Below, piece by piece: positions 28,540 through 47,155 of a stretch of 64,000 bases of DNA. The notes under the pieces are model-generated. The model saw only the letters and a list, made by a program, of their open reading frames with translations, was not told the DNA's origin and did not search any database. Position 1 is the stretch's first letter. Each line of letters opens with the position of its first letter. Position numbers and translations under genes: made by a program. Location: assembly GCA_048499675.1 (NCBI GenBank), contig JASNZL010000009.1, forward strand, positions 303 to 64,302, read 5' to 3'. This stretch comes from Candidatus Zambryskiibacteriota bacterium (GTDB lineage: Bacteria; Patescibacteriota; Minisyncoccia; Phycocordibacterales; WO2-35-19).

Positions 28540-28960
28540 TGTAATTCTAATTTTATTTTTAATTCGTCCCATCCGTCCTATCCGTCCTATTCATTTTTTA
28601 TTTGCCCTATCCGACCTATAAGTCCTATTTCCCTCCTCTGCCTTATTTGTCCTATCCGTCCTATTCGACTTATCCGTCCTATCAGTCCTATTCGACTTAT
28701 CCGTCCGATTCCCTCTCTCTTTTTCTTTCCTTTTTCGATTCGTCCTATCCGTCCTATTAGTCCTATCCGTCCTATTTCCCTCCTCTGCCTTATTTGCCCT
28801 ATCCGTCCTATTCGACTTATCCGTCCAATTCTCTCTCTTTTTCTTTCCCTTTTTAATTTGTCCTATCTGTCCAATTTTTTTATTTACCCTATCCAACCTA
28901 TAAGTCCTATCTGTCTTATTTGCTCCATCCGACTTATTGGTCCTATCAGTCCTATTTCCC
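28540..28960. repeat. 9-bp tandem repeat array 4
   Basis: Same units and blocks. Preceded by an AATTCTAATTTT AT-rich repeat at 28495-28560. Confidence 0.8.
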
Positions 28961-30991
28961 AATTAGATACAACTGCTTCACCTCCTCCGCCGACAACGCT
29001 CGATTATAAATCCGCACGTCGTCAATCGAGCCGTTAAAAAATCTATTTAACCCATTCCATTCAGAACCAATAGCTAAATTATTTGCATTAACTGTAATAT
29101 TACCAGTTGCAGAAATAAATTTATCTAACTGTCCATCAATATATATACTGAAACCTGTTTGGTCTATCGTGCACAAAATATGATACCACCTGTTAGTTTC
29201 AAGAGTGGCACCAGAACTATGATATCCTGCTGGACTTTTACCATATGCAAAAACTTCAATTTTCCCTGTTGGTACAATTGTTAAATAATATGTACCTTTA
29301 ATTATTACTCCCCTTCTATCCGCACCAGCCCAGGAATTTCCCTTTACCCAAGCGGACATAGTAATTTTTGTAACATCCAAATTGTCGCTATCATTTATTA
29401 TTACGTATTGATTTGTTCCATCAAACTCCAACGCCTGACCTATCTTACCAATAGTTGGTTTTGCACCAGTGATCGTTCCATTGTTCCCCTGCCCGCTCCT
29501 ATCATAAGCAGTCGTGCCCGAAATATCCTTACCATCAAAACTCCACAACCCAACCAAACCATCAGTCATTTTATTATTTTGGGAAGAGTTTATGGTCGCA
29601 CTACTCTGTTCATAAAGTTTTTGTATTTCTCCGGCTGATAAAGCTCGGTTGTAGATACGAACATCGTCTATTAGTCCGTTATAAGAGTAATCGCTATTAT
29701 GATAGTCTCTGCCAATTTTACCAAAAGTGGATATATTAACAGTTATCTGACCAGAATTTATAGGGCTATAAGCAACACCGTCAATGAATATTGTTACTGT
29801 CCCAGCATTGTAATCATACACGCCGGATACAAAATGCCATTTCCCGTCATTTACGTTCGCATTAACAAAAGCTTCATAAGCTGATGAGCCGTTACCAACC
29901 CATAAACCCACACGGTTAATATTTTTATATGTCATCAATTTTACTCCGTATAGATAGGTATTGTCTGTTGCCAAAACCGTTTGATGAGGTTTCCCAGTCG
30001 GTGGCCCGTTAGATTTCATCCATGCCGAAATAGTTTGAGAGCCTGTCAGTCCTGAATTTATTAAATTCACATCAACATAACTATTAATTCCATCAAAACT
30101 TAAAGCCTTCCCTCTCTTTCCATCCGTCCAAGTGGCGCCAATGATGGTCCCATTATTCCCATTCCCACTACTGTCTCCCGCAACTGTTCCAGCTCCTTCA
30201 TCAAACGACCAATACCCAACAAGTCCTTGATTAGAAACTGTTTTCCTTGTCGCTTGCCCGCTTGAATAAAGCCTTGCAATCTCTCCAGATGACAGCGCTC
30301 GATTATAAATCCGCACGTCGTCCAAAAATCCATCCAGTCTAAACGAATGAGTACCGAAAGTTAAATTTGCATTATTCGAAATAGATCCACTTCGACTTGA
30401 TATATTCACCGTATGCTTTAGAGTTCCATTTATGTAAAACTCCGCATCAGAACTCCTTCTATAATTCACCGTAACAAAATTCCACTCATTGTTCCCAACA
30501 TAAGTATTACCTGATGTGGTATTACAAGCAACATTACTAGAGACATCTTGGAAATGAGTACAAACTTCACCATTAAACATTCTGACAACAAAACCAGTGG
30601 TTACTGACCCATTACTACCATATTTATTAATTATACCAACATTACTTCTTGAATCATTTGTTTTGATCCAAAACGAAACTGAAAAATCTTGCGTCCCAAA
30701 GTTAAAAGAGTCTTTATTCCCAGCATTTACATACCCACTACTTCCATCAAGTTTTAATGCCTTCCCCCTTTTTCCATCTGTCCATTCTACACCTCCAACG
30801 AGTGTGCCATTATTCCCATTCCCGCTACTATCCCCCGCAACTGTTCCAACCCCTTCGTCAAAATTCCAATACCCTACCAAACCAAGGTTTGATGGGGGGC
30901 GCGCCAAAACCGCAGCAGTCGCTGTACGCGGAGTTGGTAAAGCTATAAACAGCAAACTAAATATGATTATTTTGATGAGAGCTTGTTGCAT
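28952..30991 (-). CDS. secreted protein with four LamG / concanavalin-A-like lectin domains (Laminin_G_3 type)
   Basis: Signal peptide. Fourfold repeat of the diagnostic motif (L/I)DDVRIYNRALS..EI..LY. Confidence 0.65.
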   Translation of the reverse strand: MQQALIKIIIFSLLFIALPTPRTATAAVLARPPSNLGLVGYWNFDEGVGTVAGDSSGNGNNGTLVGGVEWTDGKRGKALKLDGSSGYVNAGNKDSFNFGTQDFSVSFWIKTNDSRSNVGIINKYGSNGSVTTGFVVRMFNGEVCTHFQDVSSNVACNTTSGNTYVGNNEWNFVTVNYRRSSDAEFYINGTLKHTVNISSRSGSISNNANLTFGTHSFRLDGFLDDVRIYNRALSSGEIARLYSSGQATRKTVSNQGLVGYWSFDEGAGTVAGDSSGNGNNGTIIGATWTDGKRGKALSFDGINSYVDVNLINSGLTGSQTISAWMKSNGPPTGKPHQTVLATDNTYLYGVKLMTYKNINRVGLWVGNGSSAYEAFVNANVNDGKWHFVSGVYDYNAGTVTIFIDGVAYSPINSGQITVNISTFGKIGRDYHNSDYSYNGLIDDVRIYNRALSAGEIQKLYEQSSATINSSQNNKMTDGLVGLWSFDGKDISGTTAYDRSGQGNNGTITGAKPTIGKIGQALEFDGTNQYVIINDSDNLDVTKITMSAWVKGNSWAGADRRGVIIKGTYYLTIVPTGKIEVFAYGKSPAGYHSSGATLETNRWYHILCTIDQTGFSIYIDGQLDKFISATGNITVNANNLAIGSEWNGLNRFFNGSIDDVRIYNRALSAEEVKQLYLIGK

Positions 30992-31171
30992 CGTAATTAA
31001 CCTAATTATACTAATTAACCTAAATAAATCCTAAACCCTAATTAGAAATTAAAAATTCAGTAAAAATTTTTCCCTATACTTCTGCATAAGTTCAGAAACA
31101 TATGAGACTCTGATTTTTGATTTTATATGTCTTTTTATCTTAAATCTTAAATCTAATTTATTAACACACTC

Positions 31172-31702
31172 CTAAAACGAAAAACTCTCCACAAACATCT
31201 TAAGCAACTCCTCTTCTCCTTCCTCGCAAGTTACTTGATACAAAACTCCTTCCTGAATAAACCAAACATCCCAAACTCTTCCCATTGTCTCGTGTTCTGA
31301 AGCAAAACTCACAGCAGAAATTTTTGCCTTTGGTAATTCTATATCCAAAAGTGATTCTATTTTTTCACCCGCCAAATCTCTCCTTACAGTATTTGAATCA
31401 ACTTTTACACTAGTATCAACTTCCGAAATATAGACTTGCATTCCCTTTCCTTCCCTCAAAACCAAAATACCCTCACCAAATCCATCTTCTACAATAGATA
31501 GGGTGTGAGAACTTGGATAATCAAAACTAAAACCAAGTGTTGAATGGACAAATACCAACATCTCGGTTTTGCCATAAACCCCTTTTGTATCTATATCCAA
31601 AATATCACCAAGACTTCTAGGACCTTTTTCACCACCACTAAAGTAAATTATTATTAGAATAACAATCACCACAAACAGTCCTGTGTAAATCACCTTTTTC
31701 AT
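31172..31702 (-). CDS. membrane-anchored/lipoprotein-like small protein, unknown function
   Basis: N-terminal TM/signal segment. 176 aa. Confidence 0.35.
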   Translation of the reverse strand: MKKVIYTGLFVVIVILIIIYFSGGEKGPRSLGDILDIDTKGVYGKTEMLVFVHSTLGFSFDYPSSHTLSIVEDGFGEGILVLREGKGMQVYISEVDTSVKVDSNTVRRDLAGEKIESLLDIELPKAKISAVSFASEHETMGRVWDVWFIQEGVLYQVTCEEGEEELLKMFVESFSF

Positions 31703-31744
31703 ACTTTTGTTAATTTCTTTTTTATCTCTTTAACTTTACCGTTT

Positions 31745-32230
31745 CAACTCTCCCCTTTTATTTTATCTTGCCCCAATTCGTCCTATTTGTTTATCCACCC
31801 CATCTTCCTTTTTCCTTATCTGTCCTATTTGTCCTATGAGCCCCATCCGTCCTATTTCCCCTCTCTTTCCTCATCGGTCTTATACGTCCTATTTCCCTTC
31901 TCTGCCTTATTCGTCCTATTAGTCTTATTGGTACTATTTCCCTCCCCGCCCGCCATTCGTCCTATAAGTCCTATTTCCTCTCTCTTTTTCTTTCCCTTTT
32001 TAATTTGTCCTATCCGTCCGATTAGTCTTATTAGTCCTATTCGTCCTATTCGACCTATCGGTCCTATTTCCCTTTTATACGTCCTATTTGTCCTATCCGT
32101 CCGATTAGTCTTATTAGTCCTATTCGTCCTATTCGACCTATCGGTCCCATTTCCCTTTTATACGTCCTATTTGTCCTATCCGTCCAATAAGTCCTATTTC
32201 CCGCCCCCCTTCCTTCCTCTTACAACAAAC
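31745..32230. repeat. 9-bp tandem repeat array 5
   Basis: Contains an internal ~90-bp duplication (32030-32110 and 32111-32190). Confidence 0.8.
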
Positions 32231-32290: not shown

Positions 32291-34618
32291 CTACTCCTCT
32301 AACGGAAGTTCTGATCTTGATTGCGGATCCACATCAATTGGAGGAGTTGCTCCAGTAAAAGGATCTCTACCCGCCCTCAAATTATCAAGAATAAGAGAAA
32401 TTTCTTCACTGTCTGGATTTGTTGTAAGCACAGTTTCAAACACTGCAATTGCTTCAGCATCTCTACCCAGTTTATCGTAAGACAAACCTAAGAAATATTT
32501 TGCGTTGGCAAAATCTGGAACTAAAACAATTGCTCTCTCAAAAGCTTGGGAAGCTCCCAAAAAATCATCCCTATTATATTTTAGAAGACCCAATTGAAAG
32601 AATAGTCCAGAATTTGACGGGTCGACAATAGTTGCAGACTCTACAGACCTAATCGCGCCTTCTATATTATTTGTAGCCACCTCTATTTGAGCCAAAGTAA
32701 AATATGCATCGCTATAATTATTTTTCATTCGGAGAGCTTCAGCAATGTAATTTTTTGCTCCTTCCAAATCATTCTCTAGTGCACTAATTCTAGAAAATGC
32801 CAAAGGAATTGCTGGGTTATTTGGCGCTCTGTTCAATGCTTCTGCGTAAGCGCTCTTTGCATTCTCCAAGGAACCCTCTATTCCACTACCACCCAAAATC
32901 TCATACACTCTTCCCAGCGCAAACCAGTTTTGAAAATCCTTATTGTTCCAATTAATAGCCTCTCTTGCTGAAAGGATGGCATCTGATATTGCGCCCTGTA
33001 TTTCGTTTCTATCTGCCTCAGAAAGTTGCTCTGGATTAGATGCCCTACTTGCTATCTCAGAAATTCTTGCAACAGACAGTTCAGCCACACCTCTCCAGTA
33101 AACATCATTTTGAGTCAAATTAATCGCGCCTAACGCATTACCCTTCTGGAACATAGAAGTAGCGACCACCCTCTCCCACACAAAATATCCTCCGGCAATC
33201 GAAGAAATGAGAAGCACCACGATTACAAAAACCGAAGCAAAATTTGCTTTTGGATTTCTGAATATATTGAATTCCATATTTTCTGCAATTCCCTGCGCCA
33301 CCAAAGTCCCCGCAAAAATACCTGTAAAGATAAATGCCAAAGCCAAAAGCGCGATACTAGGAACATAAACAAACGCCATCACCCAAATAAAGAGGGATAT
33401 AAAGAACGTTGTAGTAGAGACAAATCTATTTCTCGAATCAGAACTTGAAGAAAATATTGCTTTATACCCCGAAAGAATATACAAGCCAAAGAAAAACAAA
33501 ATTGACAATATACCCAGCAGACCGATAGTTGAGAATAAAGTAAACACAAAACTAGAACCAAAGGCAAATTCAGAAGCCCAAAACTGCGTTAAGTTTATAT
33601 CAACCGGTCTTTGCAAATCCCACAACTCTTTAAACATATTAGGACCAACACCAAACACAGGATTTACCGAGAGAGAGTCACCAACAAGACTTAAGGTGGT
33701 TAGAGTATTTGGTCTAACTTCTACCATATTAACATTAAAAATATTAGACAAATATCCAGACAAAGCCCCCCCAGAGAGAATAAACACTACAGAAAGAATC
33801 AAAACGAAGAGTGAAGGAAATGATGCTTTTTGTGTTCCCTGAGTTCCTGACTGTGAAATATTATTCTGTGACCCAACTGACCAAGCAAAAGTGTAAACAA
33901 AATATATTAGAGAAAATAAACCAATTACAACAATTGCTGGCATAAATCCAGAAGCTCCAATAAACAAAACAGCAAAAGCAAGGACTACATACATTAGATA
34001 TTTTGTTCTATTGCTCAACGTAAATGTGTTTAGAATTGATAGGAGAGCAATCACAACAACACCCAAAAATATTGTGGTATCTATCATGCCACCAACCAAA
34101 AAATTAGGGATTCTCATACCAAAACTTTCTGGCAGTGACCCTGCAAAAATTCTAAGTAAAAGGTGGAGTATAACTACAACCGAAGACAACAGAAGCGCAT
34201 ATATTGATTTAATACCAATCCGCGCTTCTCCTCTTGACGCAAATATTGCGATGAAGAACAGGAGCGATAGTATAAAGAGTGAACCAGAAGTTCCTAAATC
34301 AAAGACTACACCCGCAACAGATTTTGATATTGCACCCGAGAAAAAAGAAGATATTAGAGCAAAAAGTGGCAACAGAGCAACTGGGATTAGAAACTTTGAT
34401 TTAGGAAAAGATATTTTCCCAGTTGAAAGAGTATTCCCCAAAAATGCCCCCAGAAACACAACGATTATAGTTGCCAAAAAAGCAACTTTGACAGAATACA
34501 AAGACAAAAAGAAGCTAGGTATAAATATAAGAGGAGTTAAGAAAACTAATAATAAGAGACAGTATTCAAAGATTTTTCCAAAATCAAACTTTGAATGCAT
34601 TTGAGTATTTTCTTCCAT
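32291..34618 (-). CDS. polytopic membrane protein (O-antigen-ligase/Wzy-like N-terminal domain) fused to C-terminal TPR repeats
   Basis: At least 12 TM helices over the first 450 aa. The C-terminus carries about 6 TPR-like repeats (AYAEALNRAPNN..., AKYFLGLSYDKLGRDAEAIAVFE). Confidence 0.5.
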   Translation of the reverse strand: MEENTQMHSKFDFGKIFEYCLLLLVFLTPLIFIPSFFLSLYSVKVAFLATIIVVFLGAFLGNTLSTGKISFPKSKFLIPVALLPLFALISSFFSGAISKSVAGVVFDLGTSGSLFILSLLFFIAIFASRGEARIGIKSIYALLLSSVVVILHLLLRIFAGSLPESFGMRIPNFLVGGMIDTTIFLGVVVIALLSILNTFTLSNRTKYLMYVVLAFAVLFIGASGFMPAIVVIGLFSLIYFVYTFAWSVGSQNNISQSGTQGTQKASFPSLFVLILSVVFILSGGALSGYLSNIFNVNMVEVRPNTLTTLSLVGDSLSVNPVFGVGPNMFKELWDLQRPVDINLTQFWASEFAFGSSFVFTLFSTIGLLGILSILFFFGLYILSGYKAIFSSSSDSRNRFVSTTTFFISLFIWVMAFVYVPSIALLALAFIFTGIFAGTLVAQGIAENMEFNIFRNPKANFASVFVIVVLLISSIAGGYFVWERVVATSMFQKGNALGAINLTQNDVYWRGVAELSVARISEIASRASNPEQLSEADRNEIQGAISDAILSAREAINWNNKDFQNWFALGRVYEILGGSGIEGSLENAKSAYAEALNRAPNNPAIPLAFSRISALENDLEGAKNYIAEALRMKNNYSDAYFTLAQIEVATNNIEGAIRSVESATIVDPSNSGLFFQLGLLKYNRDDFLGASQAFERAIVLVPDFANAKYFLGLSYDKLGRDAEAIAVFETVLTTNPDSEEISLILDNLRAGRDPFTGATPPIDVDPQSRSELPLEE

Positions 34619-34772: not shown

Positions 34773-35288
34773 ATGAATGAAATAAGATTCAGCCAACAAA
34801 ACAAGTCTCCAGAGATACAGACGGGACCCAAAGACAGCCTGTCACAAAAAGAAAATGTTCCAACCAAAAAAAGAGGCTTTTGGGTTATGTTAAAAAAAAT
34901 ATTTTTTACTCTATTTTTTATTTTAGTTATTTTACTCATTATCTTTTTTGCTAGAGACATTACAGTTAAATTATTAACAAAAGAACCAAACAATTATTCT
35001 GCAGTATTTCTTTCAAACAATCAGGTATATTTCGGTATAATGATAAAAAATTCAAAAGACGAACTTGTTTTAAAGAATGTTTTTTATGTTCAAGCAAATG
35101 AAAGTAATGACGGTGCAGGTACCCCCATCCAAAGTATTAACCAACCAAGATTTAATTTAGTAAAACTCGGCAATGAAATTCATGGGCCAACCGACAGTAT
35201 GCATATAAACAAATCTCACATAATGTTCTACGAAGACTTAAGAGAAGACAGTGTAGTGGTCCAAGCAATTAGAAACTACAAAGAATAA
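34773..35288 (+). CDS. membrane-anchored hypothetical protein
   Basis: TM helix at residues 40-60. 171 aa. Confidence 0.35.
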   Translation: MNEIRFSQQNKSPEIQTGPKDSLSQKENVPTKKRGFWVMLKKIFFTLFFILVILLIIFFARDITVKLLTKEPNNYSAVFLSNNQVYFGIMIKNSKDELVLKNVFYVQANESNDGAGTPIQSINQPRFNLVKLGNEIHGPTDSMHINKSHIMFYEDLREDSVVVQAIRNYKE

Positions 35289-35289: not shown

Positions 35290-35460
35290 ACTTATTAGTT
35301 CCATTCGTCTTTATTTGTCCTATTTTCTCTTTTCCTTCCTCCTATTTCACTTTTCTGTTTCTTAATCAGACCTATTCCCCCTTTTTTCATCCGTCTTATT
35401 CGTCCAATAAGTCCTATTTTTTGCTCGTCCTATTGGTCCATTTAGTCCTATTACCTTATC
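35290..35460. repeat. 9-bp tandem repeat array 6 (short, degenerate)
   Basis: gtcctat/gtcttat units, same orientation. Confidence 0.65.
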
Positions 35461-37985: not shown

Positions 37986-40900
37986 TAGAAGATGGCTCAA
38001 CCGGAGCTTCTACAACCGGCTCCTCAACTACTGGTTCCTCTACCGACTCCTCCACTACCGGCTCTTCAACCGCCGGTTCCTCTACTGGCTCCTCAACCGG
38101 TGTTTCCGAAACTGTGGTCCCATCACTTACTGTTTCCTCACCCGAAGTATCATCGCTTGTAGTATTATCGTCAGTACTACCTCCCCCTGATTCACCTCCC
38201 GAAGTTCCACCATCAATTGCCGGACTCTGCCCTGCCGAATTCAAAATCTGTTGTAACTCAGTCTTTGTAATACACACATCATCCAAGCACAACACTTCAG
38301 TCTCCACTCTTTGCGCAGTAATTTTTTCTACAACTAGATTAACAAGTTTTACAAAATTATTTCCAATCTCCAAACCGATTTTCTTCAAGAAATTAAATAG
38401 CCCAGCAAACACAGTCGGTACTTCCAAACTTTCGCCACCATTCAAATCAGCAATTTCTACACCTCCAACATCTCTCCAACCTTTTTCTACCAAAACTATA
38501 GTAATCTCACTTGTTGTCGTAATCCCGTCCACCACTTTTTCAGTTGTAGTCGCAAGAGTCAATGCGCGCCCAACAGTATATCCACTTTCTATCATTTTAA
38601 CAGCAACCCCCGGAGTAGTTGATGATAATGTCAAATAATCACCAACTGCAATATCTCCATTCTCATTTGAAACTTTTACTGGCACCTGTCCGACCAAAGC
38701 CACAAGGACATTGTATTTTTCGTAATTAACATCACAATCAATATCACCCACCTTACACACTGGACCATTTCCAACAAATCCGGGATTTGTGGAAACAATT
38801 CCAACCGGTTCGTTCATTCCCAAAGTTTGGTAATCTGCTCTCAAAACAGCATTTTCTCCAACTTGATCGAGCATTACAATCTCACCCGCAACAGGCAAGT
38901 TATTTGTATCTGCCACTCTGAAGTATTCGGCCAAGTCAGCGCCTGATGTTGTATATGCGACAGCACTTGCACCTCCTTGGATTTTACCGGCCACAGTTCC
39001 CGCACCATCAGAAAATCCAATAAAGTAGTTGCCCGTTGTTCTGCTTGCATTTGCAACACCAAGCGAAATCAAAAGTCCATCTGCTCCAGTACCTGTGTTT
39101 TTGTTATTTATTCTAGCGATATAACTTGAAGCACTATCTCCGTCTACATTCAAGGTGTAAGTAAGAGTACTTGTTCCTATACCAACGCTTTGACTTGCGC
39201 TATTTACAACAAGAGCAGTAGAACCAGAACCATTCTGAATATTTAACGCTGTTGTGCTTGAAATATTCATAAACAAACCTCCTGAAGCAGTAAATCCAGA
39301 CAGGAATGTTCCGCCAGAAGAAAACATATTTAACAGATTTGATGTCTGCCCCGCAGACGCAGTTATGTCTATACCAGAATTATTCGTTGATGAAGTATCT
39401 ACCTCAAAAACAGGAGAACCAGCAGAAGTTTGAATAGAGAAAGCGGTCGTAGATGAAAGTCTTTGAATAAAAGAGCCCCACTGATTAACTTCAATCACGG
39501 TCCCACCTGTTGAGGTTGCAATTCTAAATATATCCGCGGAAGCAGAACCTTGTATAGCAAGTTTGGCTCCCGGTGAAACAACACCAATCCCCACATTTCC
39601 TCCCAAAGGATTTAATGTCATATCAAGAGCGATGCCTCCCGCTGTTTTTGTTCTAGCTTGAATCCAAGAAGCATTGCCACCGTTAACACCCAGAGCCAAG
39701 ACTGCATTCGTTGTACTATTTCCAAACAAAGCGCCTCTCGTTGGAGCAACTGAGAGTGCTTCTATCGCACCATCTCCCGCGTTGTTTACATGAAAACCAA
39801 CATTTGGAGTAGTGGTGCCAATCCCCACATTTCCATCTTGATTTACAATGATTCTGTTTTGATTATTAGTCCAAATGCTTGCCGTTGTTGCATCCACATT
39901 AAATCTCTGATTTTGAGTAGTTGAATCTCTAAGTCCACCACCAGCCCCAACAATATAATTTCCGGTCACATAAGCCGTTCCAATAACAGTAAGTTCTTGA
40001 GATGGGCTTGCAGTTCCTACTCCAACTTTCCCATTATTCAAAACAGTAAAGAGTGAAGTTGTTGCGCTTCCAGTTGAGCTTGCAATATTGAATAGTGTTG
40101 TATTTGTCTCACCATTGTTTGCGTGAATAGAAAGTTTTGCGTATGGTGATGTGGTGCCGATTCCGACGTTGCCATCATTTTGTCTTATATATAGTTGCCC
40201 AGAATTAAAATTAAAATTACCTGCCCCACTTATTGTTAGTCTCTGGTTTGCTCCACCTGTTCTAAATATAACAGAACCACTTCCAAAGTTATCAAAATAT
40301 AGTCCTCCTTGACTTGTTCTAAACACCATATTTCCTGCTTGGTCTAAAGAAAATATACCCGCACCCCCAACTGTTTGGAATGAGATTTCTGCCTGAGATG
40401 ACAGAGCTGTAGATTGTGCTTTAATTTTCGCACTACCAACAGTTGAATATACATGCAACATTTCACTCGGACTCACCGTCCCCACCCCAACATTCCCATT
40501 ATCCAAAATAGTAAATCTTTCTGTGTCAGCACTGTCACTCACTGCAAATGCTCTACCTGTAGTTGTCCCACCACCTTTGACTGATAGTTTTGCACTTGGG
40601 CTAGTTGTTCCAATGCCGACGTTACCTCCGCTTGCTTGAATCACAAAATTTCCATATCCCGTACCTGTCTTTGCTCCGTAGTAAGTTAGTGTTCCGTTAC
40701 CGGTGGTATTAAATGTAAACCAACCACCCACTTCCCCAGTATTCAAACCTTGCCCAAACATTAATCCAGCAGTTGATGCGCCGTACAAATGTAGGTTACT
40801 CTGAGGATTTGTCGTCCCGATGCCAACCCTACCAGAATTTTGCTGAACTATAAATTGGGAATTGCCAACAGTGAAGCCACCTGTTGAGATGGTTGATGTA

Positions 40901-42879
40901 GCGGTAGTTGAAGTAGCATTGAAATTACCAAATGTTGGAGTTGAGGTGGCTGTGATAATTCCTGAAGCGTTTGTTGAAAGAAGTGAATTAATTGCAACAG
41001 ATGAAAGTGTAGTGTTGCCAGAAACAGTGAGTCCTCCGCTTAGAGTTTGGAGAGCAGTAAATGTATTTGCTGTGTATGTTTTTGGAATTGTGGTTGATGC
41101 GTGGATGTAAGCATTGACTACTGAGTCAGAGTACGAAGTCAAACAACTACCTGCGATTGCAAAACATCCACCCGATAGGTTGATGCCGACATTTGAAGTG
41201 GTGGTTGCTTGACCGGAGATGTTTAATCCTGAGAGAGTGGTCGTACCAAAACCAAGTGCTGATACAGAGAGTTGTGTCGCTGTCGATGAACCGATGACGA
41301 AGCTGACCACATCACCCGCTACAGGATTGACTGAAAGTTTTGCAAATGGAGTAGTTGTCCCTATTCCAATCCTGCGGTTTTGGGTTCCACCGACCCCGTC
41401 TGATTCGGAGTAGATAGTAAACATTGGGTTGCCGTCTATCTGAGCGGTGTATGAATTGACAGTACCCAAAGTCGAAGCCGAGGTGACAGGCATATCAATC
41501 CAAGAGACGATTCCTGAATCAGCTTCAAAATTTATATTTCCGAGCGCCAAGTTATCAATTGATGTGACACCAGTTGAGGAATTGTGTGTCAAAGCGCCAC
41601 CGCCTACACTCAAATTTCCTGCGATTGTCGTCGTGCTGGTAGTCCCATACGCGGTAAAGAATTGAGCCAAAGTTTCGCCTTGGACAGAAAGAAGTGCTGA
41701 TGGGCTTGTGCTCCCTATTCCCACTCTGCCACCCAAAGTCGCAAGGTATGTATTGCCGGTCGCTGTGAGTTCTGTAGTTGTAGCGCCTCCGTTGAATATT
41801 TGTAATTGTGACCAAGTGTTTGCGGTGGTCGTGCCAAAAGCAAGGGAGATGTTGTTGGAAGATATTTGAAGAGGATAGAGAGCGCTCGTTATCCTATTTA
41901 TATATGCAATGTTCCAATCAGTAGTGCTTGCAGTTAGGGGTATGTTGTAGCCAGAAGTTGGGGCGATGTTGTTTGCTGTCCTTGTGAGTCCTCCAGAGAA
42001 AGTAAGTGGCGCTTCAAAATCTGTACCAAGAATCGCAGGAACAACCGAGCCAGAAGCGTTTGTTTTGAGCAGTGAGGAGGTAATGTTTGTGATGGCAAGA
42101 TTTGTCGTCGTTGCTTGTCCGGCCATTATATTTTGCAGTGTTGAAAGTCCGGAGATATTTAAGGTGCTTGTGCTCGTAATTCCGCCACCAAAGAAAGCGG
42201 TGCCTGATATATATGAATTACCATTTACGCTTAGTGTCGCATTTGGAGTGGTAGAACCAATACCAACTCTACCAGTCGATGTTACAGAAAGAACACTTGA
42301 GGAGCTTGGACCAAAAAATTCTGCAATTTTGCCCGCGCCATTTTGAATTATTGTAAAGTAGGTGCTTGCAGTTGTTGTAGCGTTTACAGCATCGCTTCGT
42401 AGGAATTGCTCGCTTGATAAACCATCAAGTCTATCTGCTTCAAAGGAGGCAGGGACCGCACCGAGTTTTTTCCTTGGCGACAGAGTCTCCCAAGTGACAC
42501 CGTCGGTACCGCCAATTTCTACCTCAAGCCAGAGGTCTTGATTGAAGTTTACTGATGTGAGAGGAGTGGAAGAACCGAGCAAAACAGAGAATAATCCATT
42601 TGTTACATTTATCCTATTACCAACAACTGCCGAACGATCATCTTCCCATATATGACTACCGCCCACTGCCTGTGTGTAGAGTCTAAACTTCATATGGTAT
42701 AGACCATCGGCAACAGCGGTGTTTGAGGAATTGGTTAGTTTACCTTGATAATTTATTTGTTCATTAAAATTAGCAGATGCAATTTCTGGAAAAGCAAAAC
42801 CATAAGGGAAAAGAAGTCCCACTATTATTATAGTGTTGATGATTTTGTGATATGTTGTTTTGCTAATAAAATCTTTCAT
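37972..42879 (-). CDS. giant (1635 aa) secreted/surface beta-repeat fibre-like protein with acidic PEEPV-repeat C-terminal tail
   Basis: N-terminal signal/TM segment. More than 12 copies of G(N/R)VGIGTTSP.AKLSV.G. Gly/Thr/Ser-rich. C-terminal (EEPV)n. Confidence 0.55.
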   Translation of the reverse strand: MKDFISKTTYHKIINTIIIVGLLFPYGFAFPEIASANFNEQINYQGKLTNSSNTAVADGLYHMKFRLYTQAVGGSHIWEDDRSAVVGNRINVTNGLFSVLLGSSTPLTSVNFNQDLWLEVEIGGTDGVTWETLSPRKKLGAVPASFEADRLDGLSSEQFLRSDAVNATTTASTYFTIIQNGAGKIAEFFGPSSSSVLSVTSTGRVGIGSTTPNATLSVNGNSYISGTAFFGGGITSTSTLNISGLSTLQNIMAGQATTTNLAITNITSSLLKTNASGSVVPAILGTDFEAPLTFSGGLTRTANNIAPTSGYNIPLTASTTDWNIAYINRITSALYPLQISSNNISLAFGTTTANTWSQLQIFNGGATTTELTATGNTYLATLGGRVGIGSTSPSALLSVQGETLAQFFTAYGTTSTTTIAGNLSVGGGALTHNSSTGVTSIDNLALGNINFEADSGIVSWIDMPVTSASTLGTVNSYTAQIDGNPMFTIYSESDGVGGTQNRRIGIGTTTPFAKLSVNPVAGDVVSFVIGSSTATQLSVSALGFGTTTLSGLNISGQATTTSNVGINLSGGCFAIAGSCLTSYSDSVVNAYIHASTTIPKTYTANTFTALQTLSGGLTVSGNTTLSSVAINSLLSTNASGIITATSTPTFGNFNATSTTATSTISTGGFTVGNSQFIVQQNSGRVGIGTTNPQSNLHLYGASTAGLMFGQGLNTGEVGGWFTFNTTGNGTLTYYGAKTGTGYGNFVIQASGGNVGIGTTSPSAKLSVKGGGTTTGRAFAVSDSADTERFTILDNGNVGVGTVSPSEMLHVYSTVGSAKIKAQSTALSSQAEISFQTVGGAGIFSLDQAGNMVFRTSQGGLYFDNFGSGSVIFRTGGANQRLTISGAGNFNFNSGQLYIRQNDGNVGIGTTSPYAKLSIHANNGETNTTLFNIASSTGSATTSLFTVLNNGKVGVGTASPSQELTVIGTAYVTGNYIVGAGGGLRDSTTQNQRFNVDATTASIWTNNQNRIIVNQDGNVGIGTTTPNVGFHVNNAGDGAIEALSVAPTRGALFGNSTTNAVLALGVNGGNASWIQARTKTAGGIALDMTLNPLGGNVGIGVVSPGAKLAIQGSASADIFRIATSTGGTVIEVNQWGSFIQRLSSTTAFSIQTSAGSPVFEVDTSSTNNSGIDITASAGQTSNLLNMFSSGGTFLSGFTASGGLFMNISSTTALNIQNGSGSTALVVNSASQSVGIGTSTLTYTLNVDGDSASSYIARINNKNTGTGADGLLISLGVANASRTTGNYFIGFSDGAGTVAGKIQGGASAVAYTTSGADLAEYFRVADTNNLPVAGEIVMLDQVGENAVLRADYQTLGMNEPVGIVSTNPGFVGNGPVCKVGDIDCDVNYEKYNVLVALVGQVPVKVSNENGDIAVGDYLTLSSTTPGVAVKMIESGYTVGRALTLATTTEKVVDGITTTSEITIVLVEKGWRDVGGVEIADLNGGESLEVPTVFAGLFNFLKKIGLEIGNNFVKLVNLVVEKITAQRVETEVLCLDDVCITKTELQQILNSAGQSPAIDGGTSGGESGGGSTDDNTTSDDTSGEETVSDGTTVSETPVEEPVEEPAVEEPVVEESVEEPVVEEPVVEAPVEPSSTENP

Positions 42880-42939
42880 CTATCTGCTTTTTTGTTTTTT
42901 ATGTTTTGTTTTAAACTTTTACCCACTAATTACTGTTGA

Positions 42940-44679
42940 CTATTGACTCTTATCTCTAAACTCTTGCTCCTCAACTATTGACTGTTGACTCTCAACTGTT
43001 GACTCTTCATTCGTGTCGAGTTTAGTGTCATTTGAAAAATTTTCGTAGCTTTTCGTATCTTTCGCCCGCCTGCGAGCGCCTGCAGTCGCAGACAATGGCG
43101 GGCAGGCATAATTTTCGTATCGTTTCTTTTTCTTAAACAACAGCAACCAAAATTTTCTAAACAACCAAATCAAGAGTAGAACAAAAAGTATGAACCAGAA
43201 GTATTCAGACAAAATAATTAGAAACCCTGTTATTTTGTCAGCCAAAACAAAATTGTTTGATAGAGCAAGTGATGCAACAAGATTCCCGTCTATTTTTTTT
43301 AGTCCTTGATTTTTGTGATCGAGAATAGATATATGCATTCCGTAATTTCCAGATCTGCCAAGTGGAGCAATCACCGCCTCATAACCATTTTTTTCTTTGT
43401 TTATCCTCAAAAGGAAAGAGAATACTTTTGATGGATCTATCGGGTCGTAGAGTGTGATACTAATTGTTTTTAAAACTTCAGGAACTTTTTCGTAAGGCAG
43501 TCTGACTGTAAATGGTTTATCGCCAATAAGAGAAACTGTGTTTTTTTCAAATGGAAGTATTTTTCCTTCTTGAATAAATTCAAAATCTAACAAAGACAAC
43601 TCTTCTATCATTTGATCTACAATCGGGGATTTTGGGAGGAAGTCATATATATAAGGAGTGTGATCTACTATTTCCCCCGGTAGCGCTATGCGAGCATGAG
43701 CAATCGCTCCAGACGCATAATTTCCATTTTTATCTACCGCAAAAATTGTATAGAAATACAATTTTCCTTTTTCTACATCTCTATCAACATAAGATTCGCC
43801 TAATCCTCTATAAATTTCTTTTCCATCTAATATGTCCTTCGGGTAAAAAATGTCTGAACGGATTATCCTCACTTCTCTTAGATCTTTATCTGGTGGATTG
43901 TTCCAAGACAAATCTATCGACGAATCATTTTGTATTGCAACAAAATTTATTGGGTTTGAAGGTGGAGTAAAGTCAGGCAATGATTTTGTTTGGAATGTGG
44001 TTTCGGCAACCACCTGTCTACCAAAAGCATCTACTGATTGTATCTTTATATAGTATGAGGTATCACTCTCAAGATCTGAGATTTTTATATTGTGTGCCGG
44101 AATATATAATTTGCTTTGTATAGAACCCAACTCATAGTCTTTTGTTTTTCCCCAGAAAACCGTTCCCAAAGTAGCCCTGTTTGTTATCCAATTAATGACT
44201 GCAGAATCTGGCTGTGTAGCAATGTTTATATTGATAAAAATCAAAGAACTTCCACCGGGAGGCCCGACTACAGGTTTTGGAGTTGTAACAAGGACCGAAT
44301 CAGAAAGAGGCGATTCATTTGTTGCATTATCTACGGTAGACACTCTATATTCATATAAAGTATCTGCTTGTAAGTCAGTGTCGTAGAAAAATAAATCTGG
44401 AGTAGTTCCTATAAACACACCGTCTCTATATATCTTGTAATGAAGAATTCCAGCCGAAGCTGTCCCAGCATCCCAAGAAAGGTTGATTTGGCTCGTCGAT
44501 ACTGCTGTAGCGACGAGGTTGGTCGGGGCAGTTGGTGGTATACCATCTGTCACTGTTACACTCACCTCAAAAGTGCTCTCAGAAGCATAGACGTTTTTTA
44601 CACCAGAAAATGAACCAAACAAAAGAACGAGACAAACGTAGGCTGATATTATTTTTTTACTTTTTGAATTTAATTTCAT
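42940..44679 (-). CDS. membrane-anchored surface protein with fibronectin type III domains. Its C-terminal tail is encoded partly by an inserted REP/TIR sequence.
   Basis: Signal peptide. FN3 motifs (PTAPTNLVA...INLSWDA...YEYRVSTVDNATNES). C-terminal TM helix and KKKKR stop-transfer. The tail codons ACPPLSATAGARRRAKDTKSYENF derive from the GC palindrome at 43065-43112. Confidence 0.55.
   Translation of the reverse strand: MKLNSKSKKIISAYVCLVLLFGSFSGVKNVYASESTFEVSVTVTDGIPPTAPTNLVATAVSTSQINLSWDAGTASAGILHYKIYRDGVFIGTTPDLFFYDTDLQADTLYEYRVSTVDNATNESPLSDSVLVTTPKPVVGPPGGSSLIFININIATQPDSAVINWITNRATLGTVFWGKTKDYELGSIQSKLYIPAHNIKISDLESDTSYYIKIQSVDAFGRQVVAETTFQTKSLPDFTPPSNPINFVAIQNDSSIDLSWNNPPDKDLREVRIIRSDIFYPKDILDGKEIYRGLGESYVDRDVEKGKLYFYTIFAVDKNGNYASGAIAHARIALPGEIVDHTPYIYDFLPKSPIVDQMIEELSLLDFEFIQEGKILPFEKNTVSLIGDKPFTVRLPYEKVPEVLKTISITLYDPIDPSKVFSFLLRINKEKNGYEAVIAPLGRSGNYGMHISILDHKNQGLKKIDGNLVASLALSNNFVLADKITGFLIILSEYFWFILFVLLLIWLFRKFWLLLFKKKKRYENYACPPLSATAGARRRAKDTKSYENFSNDTKLDTNEESTVESQQSIVEEQEFRDKSQ
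43035..43135. repeat. solo copy of the MITE terminal repeat (ttttcgtaNcttttcgtatctttcgc...attttcgtatc) split by a family-2 GC-rich REP palindrome (43065-43112)
   Basis: Aligns with the right inverted repeat at 9301-9343. The 3-nt 'acg' is replaced by a 46-nt palindrome gcccgcctgcgagcgcctgcagtcgcagacaatggcgggcaggc. Confidence 0.5.
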
Positions 44680-44682
44680 CTT

Positions 44683-45462
44683 CTAGATTGGCAACAAAGT
44701 TAAGGTTGTAGTAGCTGTGTATGTGCCCTCCGGCTGATTTCCTCCGTATATAACTTCTGCTTGGAATTTTATTGTGGTAGTTGCACCATTTGGATGATTA
44801 CCACTATTTCTAGTACTTATTATTTTTTCTGTAGTACTTAAACCGTCCCAACATTTATTTTCATTTGAACTAGTCCCAGCATTACAAGAAAAACCATTAT
44901 TTTTGTAAGCATTTGAAACATCCAAACCATACGGATTGAATCCGAAGTGAGAAACAGTAGGTTGATTAAAGTCTAGATCGGGATCTGCTCCTATTGGTGA
45001 GTAGTCAGCAAAACTGTTTGCTCCCCAAGTCAATGCAGGAGAACTAAGAGCCTTTATTGACAACTCATAACCAGAAGGACTATCTGTCGTTACAACAACA
45101 GAAGTAGTGCCCGAAGCAATACCGCCTGTGATTCCAGCAATTGATGGTAGTAATACAACATCTGGAGCAGAAGTCATTGCTAAATAAACTTCTTGCATTT
45201 GTTGATAGCCTGCTTTTAATCTGTATGAAGTGCTTCCCGATTCACCCGTAGCTATTTCTCCAAAAGTATCTTCGATTATGTAGCTTGCAGAATCAGAGTA
45301 AGCTCCTCCAAAATTTATGCTATCACTTTGTATTTTATAACTACCACTAGACATAACCTGTCCAAAAACTTGACCAAAGGAAAAAATGTTTACTACAAAC
45401 AAAATTAAAAATGGAATATAAAATTTAATTTTGTTTAATTTAATTTCTTTTTTTAAAAACAT
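44683..45462 (-). CDS. secreted beta-rich surface protein, WxL-domain-like (paralog of 46475..47155)
   Basis: Signal peptide. Shared motifs with the paralog (GxTGGxxxGxTxVVVxTxxxxGY, TATTTLT C-terminus). Confidence 0.3.
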   Translation of the reverse strand: MFLKKEIKLNKIKFYIPFLILFVVNIFSFGQVFGQVMSSGSYKIQSDSINFGGAYSDSASYIIEDTFGEIATGESGSTSYRLKAGYQQMQEVYLAMTSAPDVVLLPSIAGITGGIASGTTSVVVTTDSPSGYELSIKALSSPALTWGANSFADYSPIGADPDLDFNQPTVSHFGFNPYGLDVSNAYKNNGFSCNAGTSSNENKCWDGLSTTEKIISTRNSGNHPNGATTTIKFQAEVIYGGNQPEGTYTATTTLTLLPI

Positions 45463-45481
45463 TTTGTTTTGTTATGACAAT

Positions 45482-46465
45482 TTATTTCCTTTTAATCTCA
45501 AATTTAGACATAACCAATTTAATCAGAGTAATCACTATTACAAAGAACACGAACACGAGACCTACGAGCATCCAAGGTATTACGTAAAACGTAACAACTT
45601 TTGTGTCAATTATGTTGTCATAACCTCTATTAACGTTAAGTTCAGCATCATATTTCCCAAACAAAAATGATGGGCTCCAAGACACCTCTCTTAACCTAAG
45701 AGAACTCGGCATCGCAAACCATGGCTCTATTTCTACAAGACCAACCTCCTGACCAAAAATGTTTTTGATTGAAATCTCTCCATATGGATTCAAGTGAACA
45801 GAACCTTCGTTTCTATAAAGAATCTGGAAATTAACTGGCGAACCTGATATGAATTTTTTATCACCAACAATTTTGAAATCTGTAACTTCTCCTTTTTCAT
45901 TGACGTCCCCTGGGACTCTAACAAAAAAGAGTATTCCTATTCTAGAAACTATTGCAGTACCACCGGTTGCACCCGATACTTCTCGCCCTTGGTTTAGTGT
46001 TGTTGTTGTAACAAGAATAGTTCCATAATGACCCCCCGGTTCTACATCTTGAGGAACAGATATTTTAACTGGAATTGTAGCTCTTTCATTGTTTTTAAGC
46101 TCAAATCTTTTTGGCTCAAAAATAAGATAGTCTCTTAGTGAATACGGACCTTTTTCATCTCCAAGCAATACGACAGTTTGGTTTGTAGATTCAGAACCAA
46201 TAAAATCTTCTACTTGGAGTTCGAACATTCTATCCTCACCCATTCTATTACTTACATATATATCGATTGTTCGTGATTCACCAGGACTCAATAAAACATC
46301 AACTTTCCCAGGGCCAACTACAAAATCTCTAGTTCCAGAATATTCTCCCAATTGTTCAATTTTGTAATTTGCGTAAACAGATGCAGAAGGAACAACAAGA
46401 AACAACAAAAACATTAAAGCAAGGAATGGTTTCTTTATTCTTTTTTTAATTTTTATTTTTTCCAT
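45482..46465 (-). CDS. surface protein with N-terminal signal peptide and C-terminal TM anchor (DUF916/CscA-like partner of WxL proteins?)
   Basis: 327 aa. C-terminal TM helix VGLVFVFFVIVITLIKLV followed by basic residues. Sandwiched between the two paralogs. Confidence 0.3.
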   Translation of the reverse strand: MEKIKIKKRIKKPFLALMFLLFLVVPSASVYANYKIEQLGEYSGTRDFVVGPGKVDVLLSPGESRTIDIYVSNRMGEDRMFELQVEDFIGSESTNQTVVLLGDEKGPYSLRDYLIFEPKRFELKNNERATIPVKISVPQDVEPGGHYGTILVTTTTLNQGREVSGATGGTAIVSRIGILFFVRVPGDVNEKGEVTDFKIVGDKKFISGSPVNFQILYRNEGSVHLNPYGEISIKNIFGQEVGLVEIEPWFAMPSSLRLREVSWSPSFLFGKYDAELNVNRGYDNIIDTKVVTFYVIPWMLVGLVFVFFVIVITLIKLVMSKFEIKRK

Positions 46466-46474
46466 ACTCGTTTG

Positions 46475-47155
46475 TTAATTTGTTGTTGCTGTTAGTGTGG
46501 TTGTTGCTGTGTATACGTCTTCAGGAATAAGTGGTATTGGATTTGGGTTTATAGTTAGTCTGAATTTTAGAGTTGTAGTAGATCCGGAAGTTGGTGTGAA
46601 TGTATTCCTGTTTACTAAGACATAGTTTGTTGTTGTTGCATTAAGCCAACATCTATCTGCTGTATTTGATGATCCGGTTCCACAAGCTGAAGTACCGTTA
46701 TCTAACCAACTTGGCGCTAGGTCAGAAGTTGTACTTGCTTCTACGGAATAACCAAACTCAGCAGTATTTGCGGGTACCGAAAAGATAAAGTCAGGTACAC
46801 CGGGAGTTGTAGGTGTGTAGTTTGGAATTACTCCACCCTGTGTATGCCCTTGCATTGCAGGAGTCGAACTTGCTTTCAGTGTCATTGTGTATCCCGCGCT
46901 ATCGTTTGTTACAACCACAACTTGTGTTTGTCCGTTTGACGTACCTCCAGTCAAACCGGGAATAGAAGCTAGTGTTACATCTGTGGCGGGAACCGAAAAG
47001 GCAACTTCAGACGTAACAGAAACGCTTACCGTAAACTGATCTTCTATAGCAAGCAAGTTGGTTGGTTCTAAAGTTGAGAACCCAGCAAAGCTTATTAGGC
47101 TTAATATGAGGGCCCCAACTATAATTTCTTTTGTGTGTATTTTTTTTGCATTCAT
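46475..47155 (-). CDS. secreted beta-rich surface protein, WxL-domain-like
   Basis: Signal peptide. PSWL...CWL motifs. Confidence 0.3.
   Translation of the reverse strand: MNAKKIHTKEIIVGALILSLISFAGFSTLEPTNLLAIEDQFTVSVSVTSEVAFSVPATDVTLASIPGLTGGTSNGQTQVVVVTNDSAGYTMTLKASSTPAMQGHTQGGVIPNYTPTTPGVPDFIFSVPANTAEFGYSVEASTTSDLAPSWLDNGTSACGTGSSNTADRCWLNATTTNYVLVNRNTFTPTSGSTTTLKFRLTINPNPIPLIPEDVYTATTTLTATTN

Follow-up and report, generated by a model that had tools for sequence, protein, structure and literature searches.

A compact four-gene pilin and chaperone locus of a Zambryskiibacteriota genome, probably related to Pam pili, with a chaperone homologous to WxLIP

The DNA analyzed here, a stretch of 64,000 nt of contig JASNZL010000009.1 from a Candidatus Zambryskiibacteriota bacterium, an ultrasmall organism of the CPR/Paceibacteria type (hereafter the window, G+C ~35%), contains on its minus strand a compact locus for surface proteins, whose core encodes two pilin-like proteins (pil226 and pil259), a membrane-anchored chaperone-like protein (chap327) and a protein with fibronectin type III (FN3) domains and a transmembrane (TM) anchor. 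This core is a tight, strongly conserved small operon and, together with the p411 gene upstream and a giant fibre gene downstream, it probably encodes a Sec-dependent surface filament or complex that would be assembled through beta-strand complementation, without usher or sortase, and would display modular lectin adhesins. The closest described system is the Pam pilus of the Candidate Phyla Radiation (CPR), which an earlier note on this DNA, made from the sequence alone, had not considered, and our verdict is that the locus represents a minimal form of this just-described system, linking Pam pili and the WxL clusters of Firmicutes. In Ca. Mycosynbacter amalyticus, the Ig-fold pilins of Pam pili are exported through Sec and joined by donor-strand exchange, with the help of the membrane-anchored FimC/PapD-like chaperones PamC and PamD, a tip pilin (PamT) and an anchor, PamR, which combines FnIII domains and a TM segment and is RbmA-like, with an N-terminal strand; the pam loci, found mainly in Saccharimonadia and Microgenomatia, have a conserved tail-fibre-like neighbour and ATP synthase genes near them (bioRxiv 10.64898/2026.03.03.709456). 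The WxL clusters, in turn, comprise a WxLIP protein (DUF916-DUF3324-TM helix) with small and large WxL proteins (PMC10599100, PMC9772566; PDB 9i1y, 9i25). In the order of transcription, the genes of the window locus are:

47206-48441, minus strand: p411 (411 aa), first gene of the operon, with an HTH_17-like cytoplasmic N-terminus, a TM segment at residues 197-219 and a conserved extracytoplasmic C-terminal domain
46475-47155, minus strand: pil226 (226 aa), pilin-like secreted protein with a signal peptide, a short conserved N-terminal segment, one Ig-like domain and the Cys pair C158/C169
45482-46465, minus strand: chap327 (327 aa), membrane-anchored chaperone-like protein with a signal peptide, two Ig-like beta-sandwich domains and a C-terminal TM helix at residues 298-321
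44683-45462, minus strand: pil259 (259 aa), PamT-like pilin with a signal peptide, an N-terminal extension, an Ig-like pilin domain at residues 88-259 and the Cys pair C193/C204
42940-44679, minus strand: FN3 anchor protein (579 aa) with a signal peptide, three FN3-type domains, a further beta domain, a TM segment at residues 482-516 and an unconserved cytoplasmic tail
37972-42879, minus strand: tail-fibre-like protein (1635 aa) with an N-terminal hydrophobic segment, a conserved module at residues ~30-246, 11 repeats, a mosaic distal part and an acidic tail

The earlier note had compared pil226, chap327 and pil259 with the WxL/DUF916 triads, a comparison that stands for the middle protein and fails for its two neighbours. 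Chap327, which has the signal peptide and the C-terminal TM helix expected of an anchored protein, is a homologue of the Enterococcus WxLIP (DUF916-DUF3324-TM helix). The Pfam family WxLIP_PGBD/DUF916 (PF06030) scores 19.5 bits with chap327 itself, under the gathering score of 27.3, and matches 33 of the 34 members of its family (best E = 7e-7), whereas the family profile finds the E. faecium WxLIP (EfmWxLIP1; 9i25_C, 9i1y_A) in the PDB with E = 7e-9. The AlphaFold model of chap327 (pLDDT 86) consists of two beta-sandwich domains, a disordered loop at residues 160-170 and the TM helix, and its top PDB matches in Foldseek are again the WxLIP structures 9i1y and 9i25 (1.6e-12), followed by RbmA and then by the chaperones of chaperone-usher pili CfaA, CsuC, Caf1M, FimC, DraB, SafB, EcpB and CupB2 (E 1e-8 to 1e-6). 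The top WxLIP match covers both chap327 domains, although Pfam DUF3324 was not detected in the protein despite a fold alignment of ~270 columns. In AlphaFold2 models, a WxLIP loop that is unstructured in the protein alone becomes ordered on binding and completes the beta-sandwich of the WxL protein (PMC10599100), which, as modelled, is donor-strand complementation. On the other hand, the predicted structure of chap327 also shows the build of the Pam-type chaperones, that is, two FimC/PapD-like beta domains and a C-terminal TM helix, a likeness to PamC and PamD in architecture and fold.

The two proteins at either side of chap327 are, as had been proposed, beta-rich secreted paralogues (35% identity, HHalign probability 100%). 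Their identity as WxL proteins was rejected: they show no W-x-L motif, no match to Pfam WxL and no PDB sequence match to the long WxL of 9i25, and the 50 best fold matches of the pil259 model include no WxL chain. Instead, pil259 matches the NCBIfam model CPR_pilus_PamT (NF058579) with E = 4.4e-9 and 36.1 bits over model positions 8-127 of 241, and the same model is matched by all 37 members of the pil259 family (best 6.2e-15), in every case under its equivalog cut-off of 240 bits, which indicates that pil259 is, by sequence, a distant homologue of PamT and not an equivalog. No Pam model of NCBIfam matches the 34 members of the pil226 family, and NF058581 (Pam pilin C) is found in one of the 37 pil259 relatives and in none of the 34 of pil226. 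The AlphaFold model of pil259 combines a confident Ig-like domain (residues 88-259, pLDDT >90) with a disordered N-terminal segment (residues 35-87, pLDDT ~40), and precisely this extension of ~50 aa, which holds three SxxYx[IL]-type segments, is the most conserved part of the protein, with dense invariant columns in the family alignment. A segment so conserved and yet predicted as disordered is what would be expected of a strand that folds only in its partner, and may be taken as an indirect sign of a donor strand. The best PDB matches of the pil259 fold are almost all pilins of the chaperone-usher type (FimA, FimF, FimG, CfaB, the pilin domain of PapG and CsuA/B; E 0.016-0.1), and a single pair of conserved Cys residues is present in each of the small pilins, a feature also reported for Pam pilins. 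The relatives of these pilins are numerous, with 1680 representatives of 50%-identity clusters obtained in a profile search of 1.8 billion representatives.

These data bear on the possibility of a static surface platform of the WxL type, where the WxLIP homologue would hold two small proteins by strand complementation and carry large adhesins without forming any filament. Such a platform would agree with the fact that the strongest homology of chap327 is to WxLIP and not to the Pam models, with the lack of two-domain major pilins of the PamA/PamB type, and with the commonest type of WxL cluster, which consists of one WxLIP and two small secreted paralogues (PMC10599100). However, the flanking proteins have neither a W-x-L motif nor a Pfam or PDB sequence match to WxL, their fold matches pilins, the PamT-like pil259 carries a long, conserved and unfolded N-terminal extension, as a polymerising subunit needs, and a dedicated FN3-TM terminator or anchor is conserved. 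We thus regard the platform as an unlikely explanation, if the first to be considered after a filament or complex of the Pam type.

The FN3 protein, recognized from the start as an FN3 protein with a TM anchor, contains fn3 and FN3-like domains ahead of its TM segment (Pfam fn3 and Pur_ac_phosph_N, with FN3-type PHROG matches that reach residue 325) and a short, conserved N-terminal segment resembling a beta-strand, STFEVSVTV. Its architecture resembles that of PamR, to which it is likened by the description of this protein, with three FN3-type domains and an extra domain instead of two. At the 3′ end of the gene, a 21-bp tandem repeat of 3.5 copies (42932-43004) codes for part of the unconserved cytoplasmic tail.

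Downstream of the FN3 gene, the 1635-aa protein had been described as a fibre with more than 12 beta repeats and a proline- and glutamate-rich tail. Its GxVGIGTxxP...L.V repeat and its acidic (P/V)EE tail (residues 1594-1623) are indeed present, with a count of 11 repeats. The protein matches tail fibres in PHROGs (4e-14) and Bd2133 of Bdellovibrio in the PDB (1.5e-5), and its homologues are often named 'tail fiber domain-containing protein', many of them with a Peptidase_S74 domain (PF13884); the fibre itself has no Pfam match, and hence no C-terminal Peptidase_S74. What the homologues share is mainly the N-terminal module (residues ~30-250, depending on the homologue; 50-65% identity), whose continuation is a mosaic that may include Peptidase_S74, DUF5011, LVIVD or beta-helix segments. 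The PHROG matches, to tail fibre for the 1635-aa protein, to a virion structural protein for a LamG protein further downstream and to tail proteins for the FN3 domains, might point to the remnant of a prophage tail module, with a tail fibre and LamG-bearing virion proteins. But these matches fall on domains that are shared (FN3, LamG, fibre repeats), the window has no further phage genes, and many species keep the locus in synteny on the chromosome, all of which makes a prophage origin scarcely credible.

The conservation of the locus was analyzed in 87 loci around chap327 homologues, drawn from Paceibacteria, Kaiserbacteria, Nomurabacteria and other groups, in which gene presence was scored by BLAST. 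Of these loci, 80 belong to GTDB species representatives, taken from 263 that were confirmed, and the others are contigs from an exact look-up. At least 263 of the GTDB species representatives encode a chap327 relative. Within the 87 loci, chap327 is present in all, pil259 in 85, pil226 in 84 and the FN3 gene in 77, and the order of these four genes is kept in nearly all the loci that have them, with a few rearrangements (e.g., L066 and L072). A giant protein with a match to the fibre adjoins the core in 48 loci, and in the window the gaps from p411 through the fibre measure 3-60 nt. A first arrangement, that of the window, runs GatB, small HTH gene on the opposite strand, p411, pil226, chap327, pil259, FN3, giant fibre, a membrane protein with tetratricopeptide repeats (TPRs) and MurJ, whereas in a second one the core is preceded by the gene of a giant LamG-containing protein, which can reach 3000 aa, and genes of central metabolism follow the FN3 gene. 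The genes after the core in Kaiserbacteria-type loci were considered as additional pilus genes and discarded, as they encode GAPDH, RpiB, Rpe and transketolase, and therefore the core consists of four genes. The place of the core in the chromosome, between GatB and the TPR protein-MurJ pair, is often the same in related genomes. In the closest relative, chap327 (80% identity), pil226 (79%) and the first 246 aa of the fibre (81%) are better kept than GatB (65%), so the core is more conserved than this housekeeping gene, whereas the fibre past residue 246 falls to ~28%. Homologues of the block proteins with a named source come from Paceibacteria, Parcubacteria, Kaiserbacteria, Nomurabacteria, Zambryskibacteria and metagenome-assembled genomes of the 'Patescibacteria group'. 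Many third-party annotation (TPA) assemblies, the closest relative included, bear the label 'uncultured Candidatus Saccharibacteria', which was taken as generic because named Paceibacteria show identical synteny beside it. A scan for promoters and terminators gave no enrichment over shuffled sequences and was uninformative.

A second line of evidence comes from gene fusions. Among the top 150 representatives of the pilin family, 48 are at least 330 aa long, and these comprise ~18 fusions of chaperone and pilin, ~17 of LamG or DUF2341-LamG with a pilin, and 13 proteins whose N-terminal parts are different or could be assigned to no family; one representative of the family carries LamG together with CBM_4_9. 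The fused modules either precede the pilin or separate its N-terminal extension from the pilin domain. The chaperone-pilin fusions (L213 410-2146; P0363, P0365-P0368 and others) could have been artefacts of gene calling, but one of them, checked on the DNA, is a genuine in-frame open reading frame (ORF) with two hydrophobic segments, which keeps both the TM helix of the chaperone and the signal sequence of the pilin and is consistent with an out-in-out topology. As for the pil259-type pilins with LamG or DUF2341, one with DUF2341-LamG occupies the very slot of pil259 (L091 8001-9803), two LamG-pilins precede the operon (L089 4596-6350; L090 8001-9434), and others are P0381, P0424, P0430, P0447 and P0461. 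Since chaperone, pilin and LamG modules are fused in other genomes, they appear to be functionally linked, and because pilins of the pil259 type elsewhere carry LamG or DUF2341-LamG modules, the free-standing LamG genes of the window can be tied to the same system. The fusions also suggest that DUF2341 is an adhesin module displayed on pili.

Conservation and fusions together modify the picture of a single attachment or cell-envelope island that had been drawn from the sequence. Across the 87 loci, the block once delimited as 28952-47155 resolves into a conserved core locus, with its genes in 77-87 loci, and variable insertions, since LamG/DUF2341 genes occur in 5-6 of them. An adhesion island acquired by horizontal transfer, as a loose set of surface proteins with no common function, would explain the scarcity of the LamG/DUF2341 genes, the genome-specific repeat arrays around them and the mosaic fibre; it is at odds with a core that is syntenic in 77-87 of the loci, often between GatB and the TPR protein-MurJ pair, and more conserved than GatB in the closest relative, with the fusions that connect chaperone, pilin and LamG modules, and with a G+C of the block (0.35-0.44) that is not atypical, in contrast to the 0.52 seen at 2-4 kb. 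For the core, such an origin is largely refuted, and as an account of the whole it is very improbable.

If the locus indeed encodes a filament or complex of the Pam type, its assembly would start with the export of all the components, which bear signal peptides. Chap327, held in the membrane by its C-terminal helix, would then cap the incomplete Ig-like fold of both pilins with a strand of its own, by analogy with WxLIP and with PamC/PamD, and the candidates for the donor are its disordered hairpin loop at residues 160-170 or a conserved strand, DFVVGPGK. The N-terminal extension of a pilin would displace the strand of the chaperone in the next subunit through donor-strand exchange, producing a chain of pil226 and pil259, and the N-terminal strand of the FN3 protein would terminate this chain and anchor it in the membrane, as proposed for PamR. 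The fibre, in turn, would dock to the cell or to the filament via its conserved N-terminal 246 residues, leaving the mosaic distal part to recognise a host surface. LamG and DUF2341-LamG proteins would be the lectin-type adhesin modules of the system, encoded here by separate, recently inserted genes, and, finally, the 78-aa HTH protein and the HTH-TM protein p411 would be the candidate regulators.

Several observations weigh against this scheme. The match to PamT lies far under the cut-off (36 vs 240 bits) and is given by pil259 alone, as the chap327, pil226 and FN3 families match no Pam model of NCBIfam, and the similarities of the pil259 fold to chaperone-usher pilins are weak, none of them with E<=0.001. 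Two-domain major pilins like PamA/PamB are absent, since the two pilins of the window, of 226 and 259 aa, each show one structured domain, and therefore a long filament is not assured. No ATP synthase genes, which have been reported as neighbours of pam loci, occur in the 64-kb window. Polymerisation, strand exchange and the order of the subunits are read from predictions for monomers and from sequence, and the mode of attachment of the fibre is likewise a deduction. Moreover, the LamG/DUF2341 proteins of the window have neither a pilin domain nor a recognisable donor strand, and it is through their neighbourhood and the fusions in other genomes that they would belong to the system.

In a wider frame, it is possible, though somewhat less than probable, that the locus of Paceibacteria type represents, in minimal form, a single ancient superfamily of strand-complementation systems without usher or sortase, which would unite the WxL clusters of Firmicutes, through their WxLIP-type chaperone, and the Pam pili of CPR bacteria, by way of the PamT-type pilin. 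Its members would exchange host specificity in modules, by the insertion of LamG, DUF2341 or CBM lectin modules into the pilin and by recombination of the distal part of the fibre on its 246-residue adaptor. In the searchable literature, no link of DUF916/WxLIP with CPR bacteria or Pam was found, and it is absent from both the WxL literature and the Pam preprint.

The remainder of the block, between the fibre and MurJ, contains the following genes:

35456-37798, minus strand: secreted protein of 780 aa with two DUF2341 + LamG units, accessory adhesin candidate
34773-35288, plus strand: putative gene of 171 aa with one TM segment at residues 35-70, no family match and no match in the 87 loci
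32291-34618, minus strand: polytopic membrane protein of 775 aa with ~12 hydrophobic segments and C-terminal TPRs (Pfam, NCBIfam)
31172-31702, minus strand: p176 (176 aa), membrane-anchored or secreted protein with no family match
28952-30991, minus strand: secreted protein of 679 aa with three LamG (Laminin_G_3) domains, accessory adhesin candidate

All the ORFs of the earlier note are present where it had placed them, and every protein of the block has an N-terminal hydrophobic signal or anchor segment, as it had said; its ten consecutive minus-strand genes are in fact nine, with the 171-aa ORF on the plus strand. The description of the proteins as extracytoplasmic and of adhesion type, to be abandoned if enzymes were recognized among them, is supported by the finding of no enzymatic family for the ten block proteins in Pfam, NCBIfam and PHROGs, and no Pfam family at all was detected for the fibre, the two small pilins, p176 and the 171-aa protein. 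In the 679-aa protein, four LamG domains had been counted, but there are three, in view of its three DDVRIYN and three LVGxWxFD motifs and of the three stretches matched by PF13385 (257 bits, above the gathering score); its LamG part also matches the NCBIfam model of TafC, with 128 bits against a cut-off of 410. The tandem DUF2341-LamG composition of the 780-aa protein is borne out by PF13385 (119 bits) and PF10102 (87 bits), each with two stretches and above the gathering score. The genes of these two proteins are found in five and six of the 87 loci, respectively, and in the window they lie between the fibre, the TPR protein and MurJ, which are adjacent to one another in L006, L010, L020, L021 and L030. 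They are thus lineage-specific, variable insertions into a conserved fibre-TPR protein-MurJ backbone, to which the 775-aa protein itself belongs and is therefore no insertion. The lectin-type adhesins of the window probably serve to grip host cells. As regards p176, a homologue adjoins fibre or DUF2341 genes in two other loci (L024, L087).

The 775-aa protein had been compared with O-antigen ligases followed by TPRs, and both its C-terminal TPRs and its membrane character are clear. An O-antigen ligase or Wzy_C identity was discarded, given that its N-terminal 520 aa have no Pfam match at E<=0.05 and that NCBIfam gives TPR-type matches only. The conserved proximity of this polytopic TPR protein to MurJ (25658-27292), together with the fact that LamG folds also occur in glycan-acting enzymes ('lectin/glucanases superfamily'), could suggest a role of the block in cell-envelope biogenesis, with the TPR protein and the lectin-like proteins acting in the assembly of wall or glycans. 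Against it stand the lack of any catalytic family in the block proteins, the dispensability of LamG/DUF2341 genes in most relatives and the fusion of their modules to pilin domains, and we see only a slight chance for this role.

At the other end, the block had been closed at 47155, but the functional unit reaches upstream to 48441 with the p411 gene, and probably extends on to a divergent gene:

48858-49094, plus strand: small helix-turn-helix (HTH) gene of MerR/HTH_17 type, 78 aa, divergent from the operon

A p411 gene lies directly upstream of the pilin gene in 45 of the 87 loci. The alignment of its family shows conserved N- and C-termini, and Pfam HTH_17 is recognized in 7 of 22 members (best E = 9e-15), the p411 of the window falling below detection. 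It may be either a membrane-tethered regulator or a component of the base. The small gene has identical or orthologous counterparts of 78-80 aa in an equal position in related loci, with Pfam matches to MerR/HTH_17, and its product is a candidate regulator of the operon.

Repeat arrays had been noticed in the first half of the block, where they are indeed found, but they are not confined to it. The unit ATAGGACNN (in minus-strand sense) gave 110 matches in a 16-mer search, against 0.29 expected, and its 9-bp arrays fill seven spacers from 23.1 to 38.0 kb, flanking MurJ and LepA, in a single orientation that is kept even around the plus-strand LepA gene:

23106-23417, minus strand: ATAGGACNN array
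25424-25661, minus strand: ATAGGACNN array
27433-27830, minus strand: ATAGGACNN array
28566-28955, minus strand: ATAGGACNN array, whose first TAG is the stop codon of the gene with three LamG domains
31822-32197, minus strand: ATAGGACNN array with a higher-order unit of 83 bp
35393-35451, minus strand: short ATAGGACNN array just downstream of the 780-aa gene
37843-37975, minus strand: ATAGGACNN array, whose first TAG is the stop codon of the fibre

In five cases the array starts at, or at most 5 nt from, the stop codon of the upstream gene, and an array that begins on this codon provides it with its first TAG. The arrays also contain higher-order units of 54 and 83 bp, with 96-97% identity, and are places where contigs of the same strain are broken. 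They are not a feature common to the relatives, as none of 90 related loci has them. Nevertheless, at least 120 metagenome contigs, whose G+C ranges between 24 and 77%, contain the exact triple unit (Joint Genome Institute, L093-L212; e.g., L095 503-597, L130 4406-4497 and L116 2815-2895). Some of these matches are collagen-like coding repeats (G-P-I), and many are short arrays in spacers, or inverted pairs that form hairpins right after stop codons in high-GC genomes, where the conservation of an AT-rich heptamer suggests a widespread extragenic element. Collagen-like coding, true for some low-GC metagenome matches, was rejected for the window arrays as a read-through of the upstream gene, in whose frame they have a stop at every third codon; their G-R-I frame ends at stops wherever it was read. 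No Rfam family matches the arrays, ruling out an RNA known to that database, and although they fold better than shuffled sequences (z ~-6), this value is little telling because repeats with GGACC/GGUCC units would fold better anyway. Between two of the arrays lies the gene of a 220-aa protein (27827-28489, minus strand) with a weak match to 23S_rRNA_IVP, a four-helix bundle of the Avd-like kind, and another four-helix-bundle ORF was seen inside the pilus locus of a different genome (L089 6415-6813). A companionship of arrays and such genes was discarded, with a gene of this type in only 3 of 120 metagenome loci, and no recurrent neighbour protein was found in the at least 120 contigs.

The rest of the window carries housekeeping genes (GatB, DnaK/DnaJ/GrpE, LepA, MurJ, CysS, PheS and S9) and one tRNA, and proteins identical to those of the window were found on short contigs from two sequencing runs. 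The two type IV pilin paralogues that had been pointed out are confirmed, both with the N-terminal methylation motif G-F-T-L-I-E of type IV pilins:

15220-15768, plus strand: type IV pilin paralogue with KGFTLIELLVVIAIIGVLS
22461-22988, minus strand: type IV pilin paralogue with KGFTLIELLVVIAIIGVLS, matching PF07963 with E = 2.8e-10

Near the beginning of the window, two tandem and highly similar minus-strand genes of 388 and 391 aa (1824-2990 and 3181-4356), with signal peptides, no Pfam family and ~52% G+C, look like a secreted protein gene that was acquired recently and then duplicated. They are followed, still upstream of the region, by genes for a HlyD-like membrane-fusion protein, an ABC ATPase and an FtsX-type permease (6568-10645, minus strand), resembling a MacAB exporter. 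At 49792-50454 (plus strand), the gene of an IS200-like Y1 transposase (PF01797) converges on GatB, with an overlap of 24 nt at the 3′ end of the latter. The closest relative has it at the same place with 59% identity, and no 9-bp arrays adjoin the window copy; because its position is kept in that relative, the gene seems to be domesticated, possibly RAYT-like, rather than a mobile insertion sequence.

CPR/Patescibacteria make up a large share of bacterial diversity, and the cultivated ones live attached to other microbes. To our knowledge, the only structures for holding a host that have been described in them are type IV pili and, since a preprint of 2026, the Pam pili of Saccharimonadia. 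The compact four-gene relative of Pam described here is widespread in the sampled genomes of the Paceibacteria/Parcubacteria type, and its WxLIP-homologous chaperone offers a link that can be tested, both in evolution and in mechanism, with the WxL virulence clusters of Enterococcus, Listeria and lactobacilli, of which little is understood. The pilins with LamG or DUF2341, together with the fibre, point to where host specificity is encoded, and the locus is a concrete target for the prediction of host ranges from metagenomes.

The system can finally be compared with those already known. Haloarchaeal Tat-fimbriae (TafA, TafC, TafE, TafF) are filaments based on strand donation, with TafF as membrane anchor (PMC11821415, PMC12337348). 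Their adhesin TafC joins a pilin-like domain and a laminin-G domain, and the window protein with three LamG domains matches its LamG part, but Tat-fimbriae are archaeal, use Tat export and lack a chaperone homologue, and the match is limited to that part (128 vs 410 bits). The fibre matches both phage tail fibres and the mosaic adhesive trimer (MAT) fibres of Bdellovibrio (PDB 8ond, Bd2133), a bacterium that uses them when attacking other bacteria (PMC10769870), and, like them, it is conserved in its N-terminal module and mosaic in its distal part. In contrast to them, it has no Peptidase_S74, and its gene lies in a pilus-type operon and not in the context of a phage tail or of predator vesicles. 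With chaperone-usher pili (Fim, Pap, CFA/I, Csu, Caf1) the locus shares the fold of the chaperone (Foldseek 1e-8 to 1e-6) and, weakly, that of the pilin, as well as a putative logic of donor-strand complementation and exchange, and the two-domain adhesins FimH and PapG, which join a lectin to a pilin domain, parallel the LamG-pilin fusions. However, there is neither outer membrane nor usher here, no usher family being found in any block or flanking protein, the chaperone is membrane-anchored, and no sequence similarity is detectable.

The WxL clusters come closer. Their central protein is a homologue of chap327 in sequence and fold, they likewise place one WxLIP beside two secreted paralogues, a WxLIP strand is predicted to become ordered on binding and to complement the partner, and large adhesion domains are associated. 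The partners in the window are nevertheless not WxL proteins, as they have a pilin-like fold and lack both the W-x-L motif and any sequence match to WxL in Pfam or the PDB. Pfam does not detect DUF3324, and the window locus has in addition the FN3 anchor, the fibre and the HTH-TM gene. The differences from Pam pili, in turn, are two small single-domain pilins and none of the two-domain PamA/PamB/PamE type, one chaperone where Pam has two, no match of the chaperone, pil226 and FN3 families to the Pam models of NCBIfam, no ATP synthase genes nearby, upstream HTH-TM and small HTH genes, LamG or DUF2341 inserts in members of the pilin family, and named homologues from genomes of the Paceibacteria/Parcubacteria type. 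In any case, it is with the Pam pilus that the locus shares most of its organization: a CPR host, Sec export of all the parts with no usher, sortase or ATPase, a chaperone with two Ig domains held in the membrane by a C-terminal helix, pilins whose Ig-like domains have Cys pairs and that bear a strand region at the N-terminus, a putative anchor of FN3 type that ends in a TM helix, a tail-fibre-like gene as conserved neighbour, and a pilin, pil259, that consistently matches PamT below the threshold.

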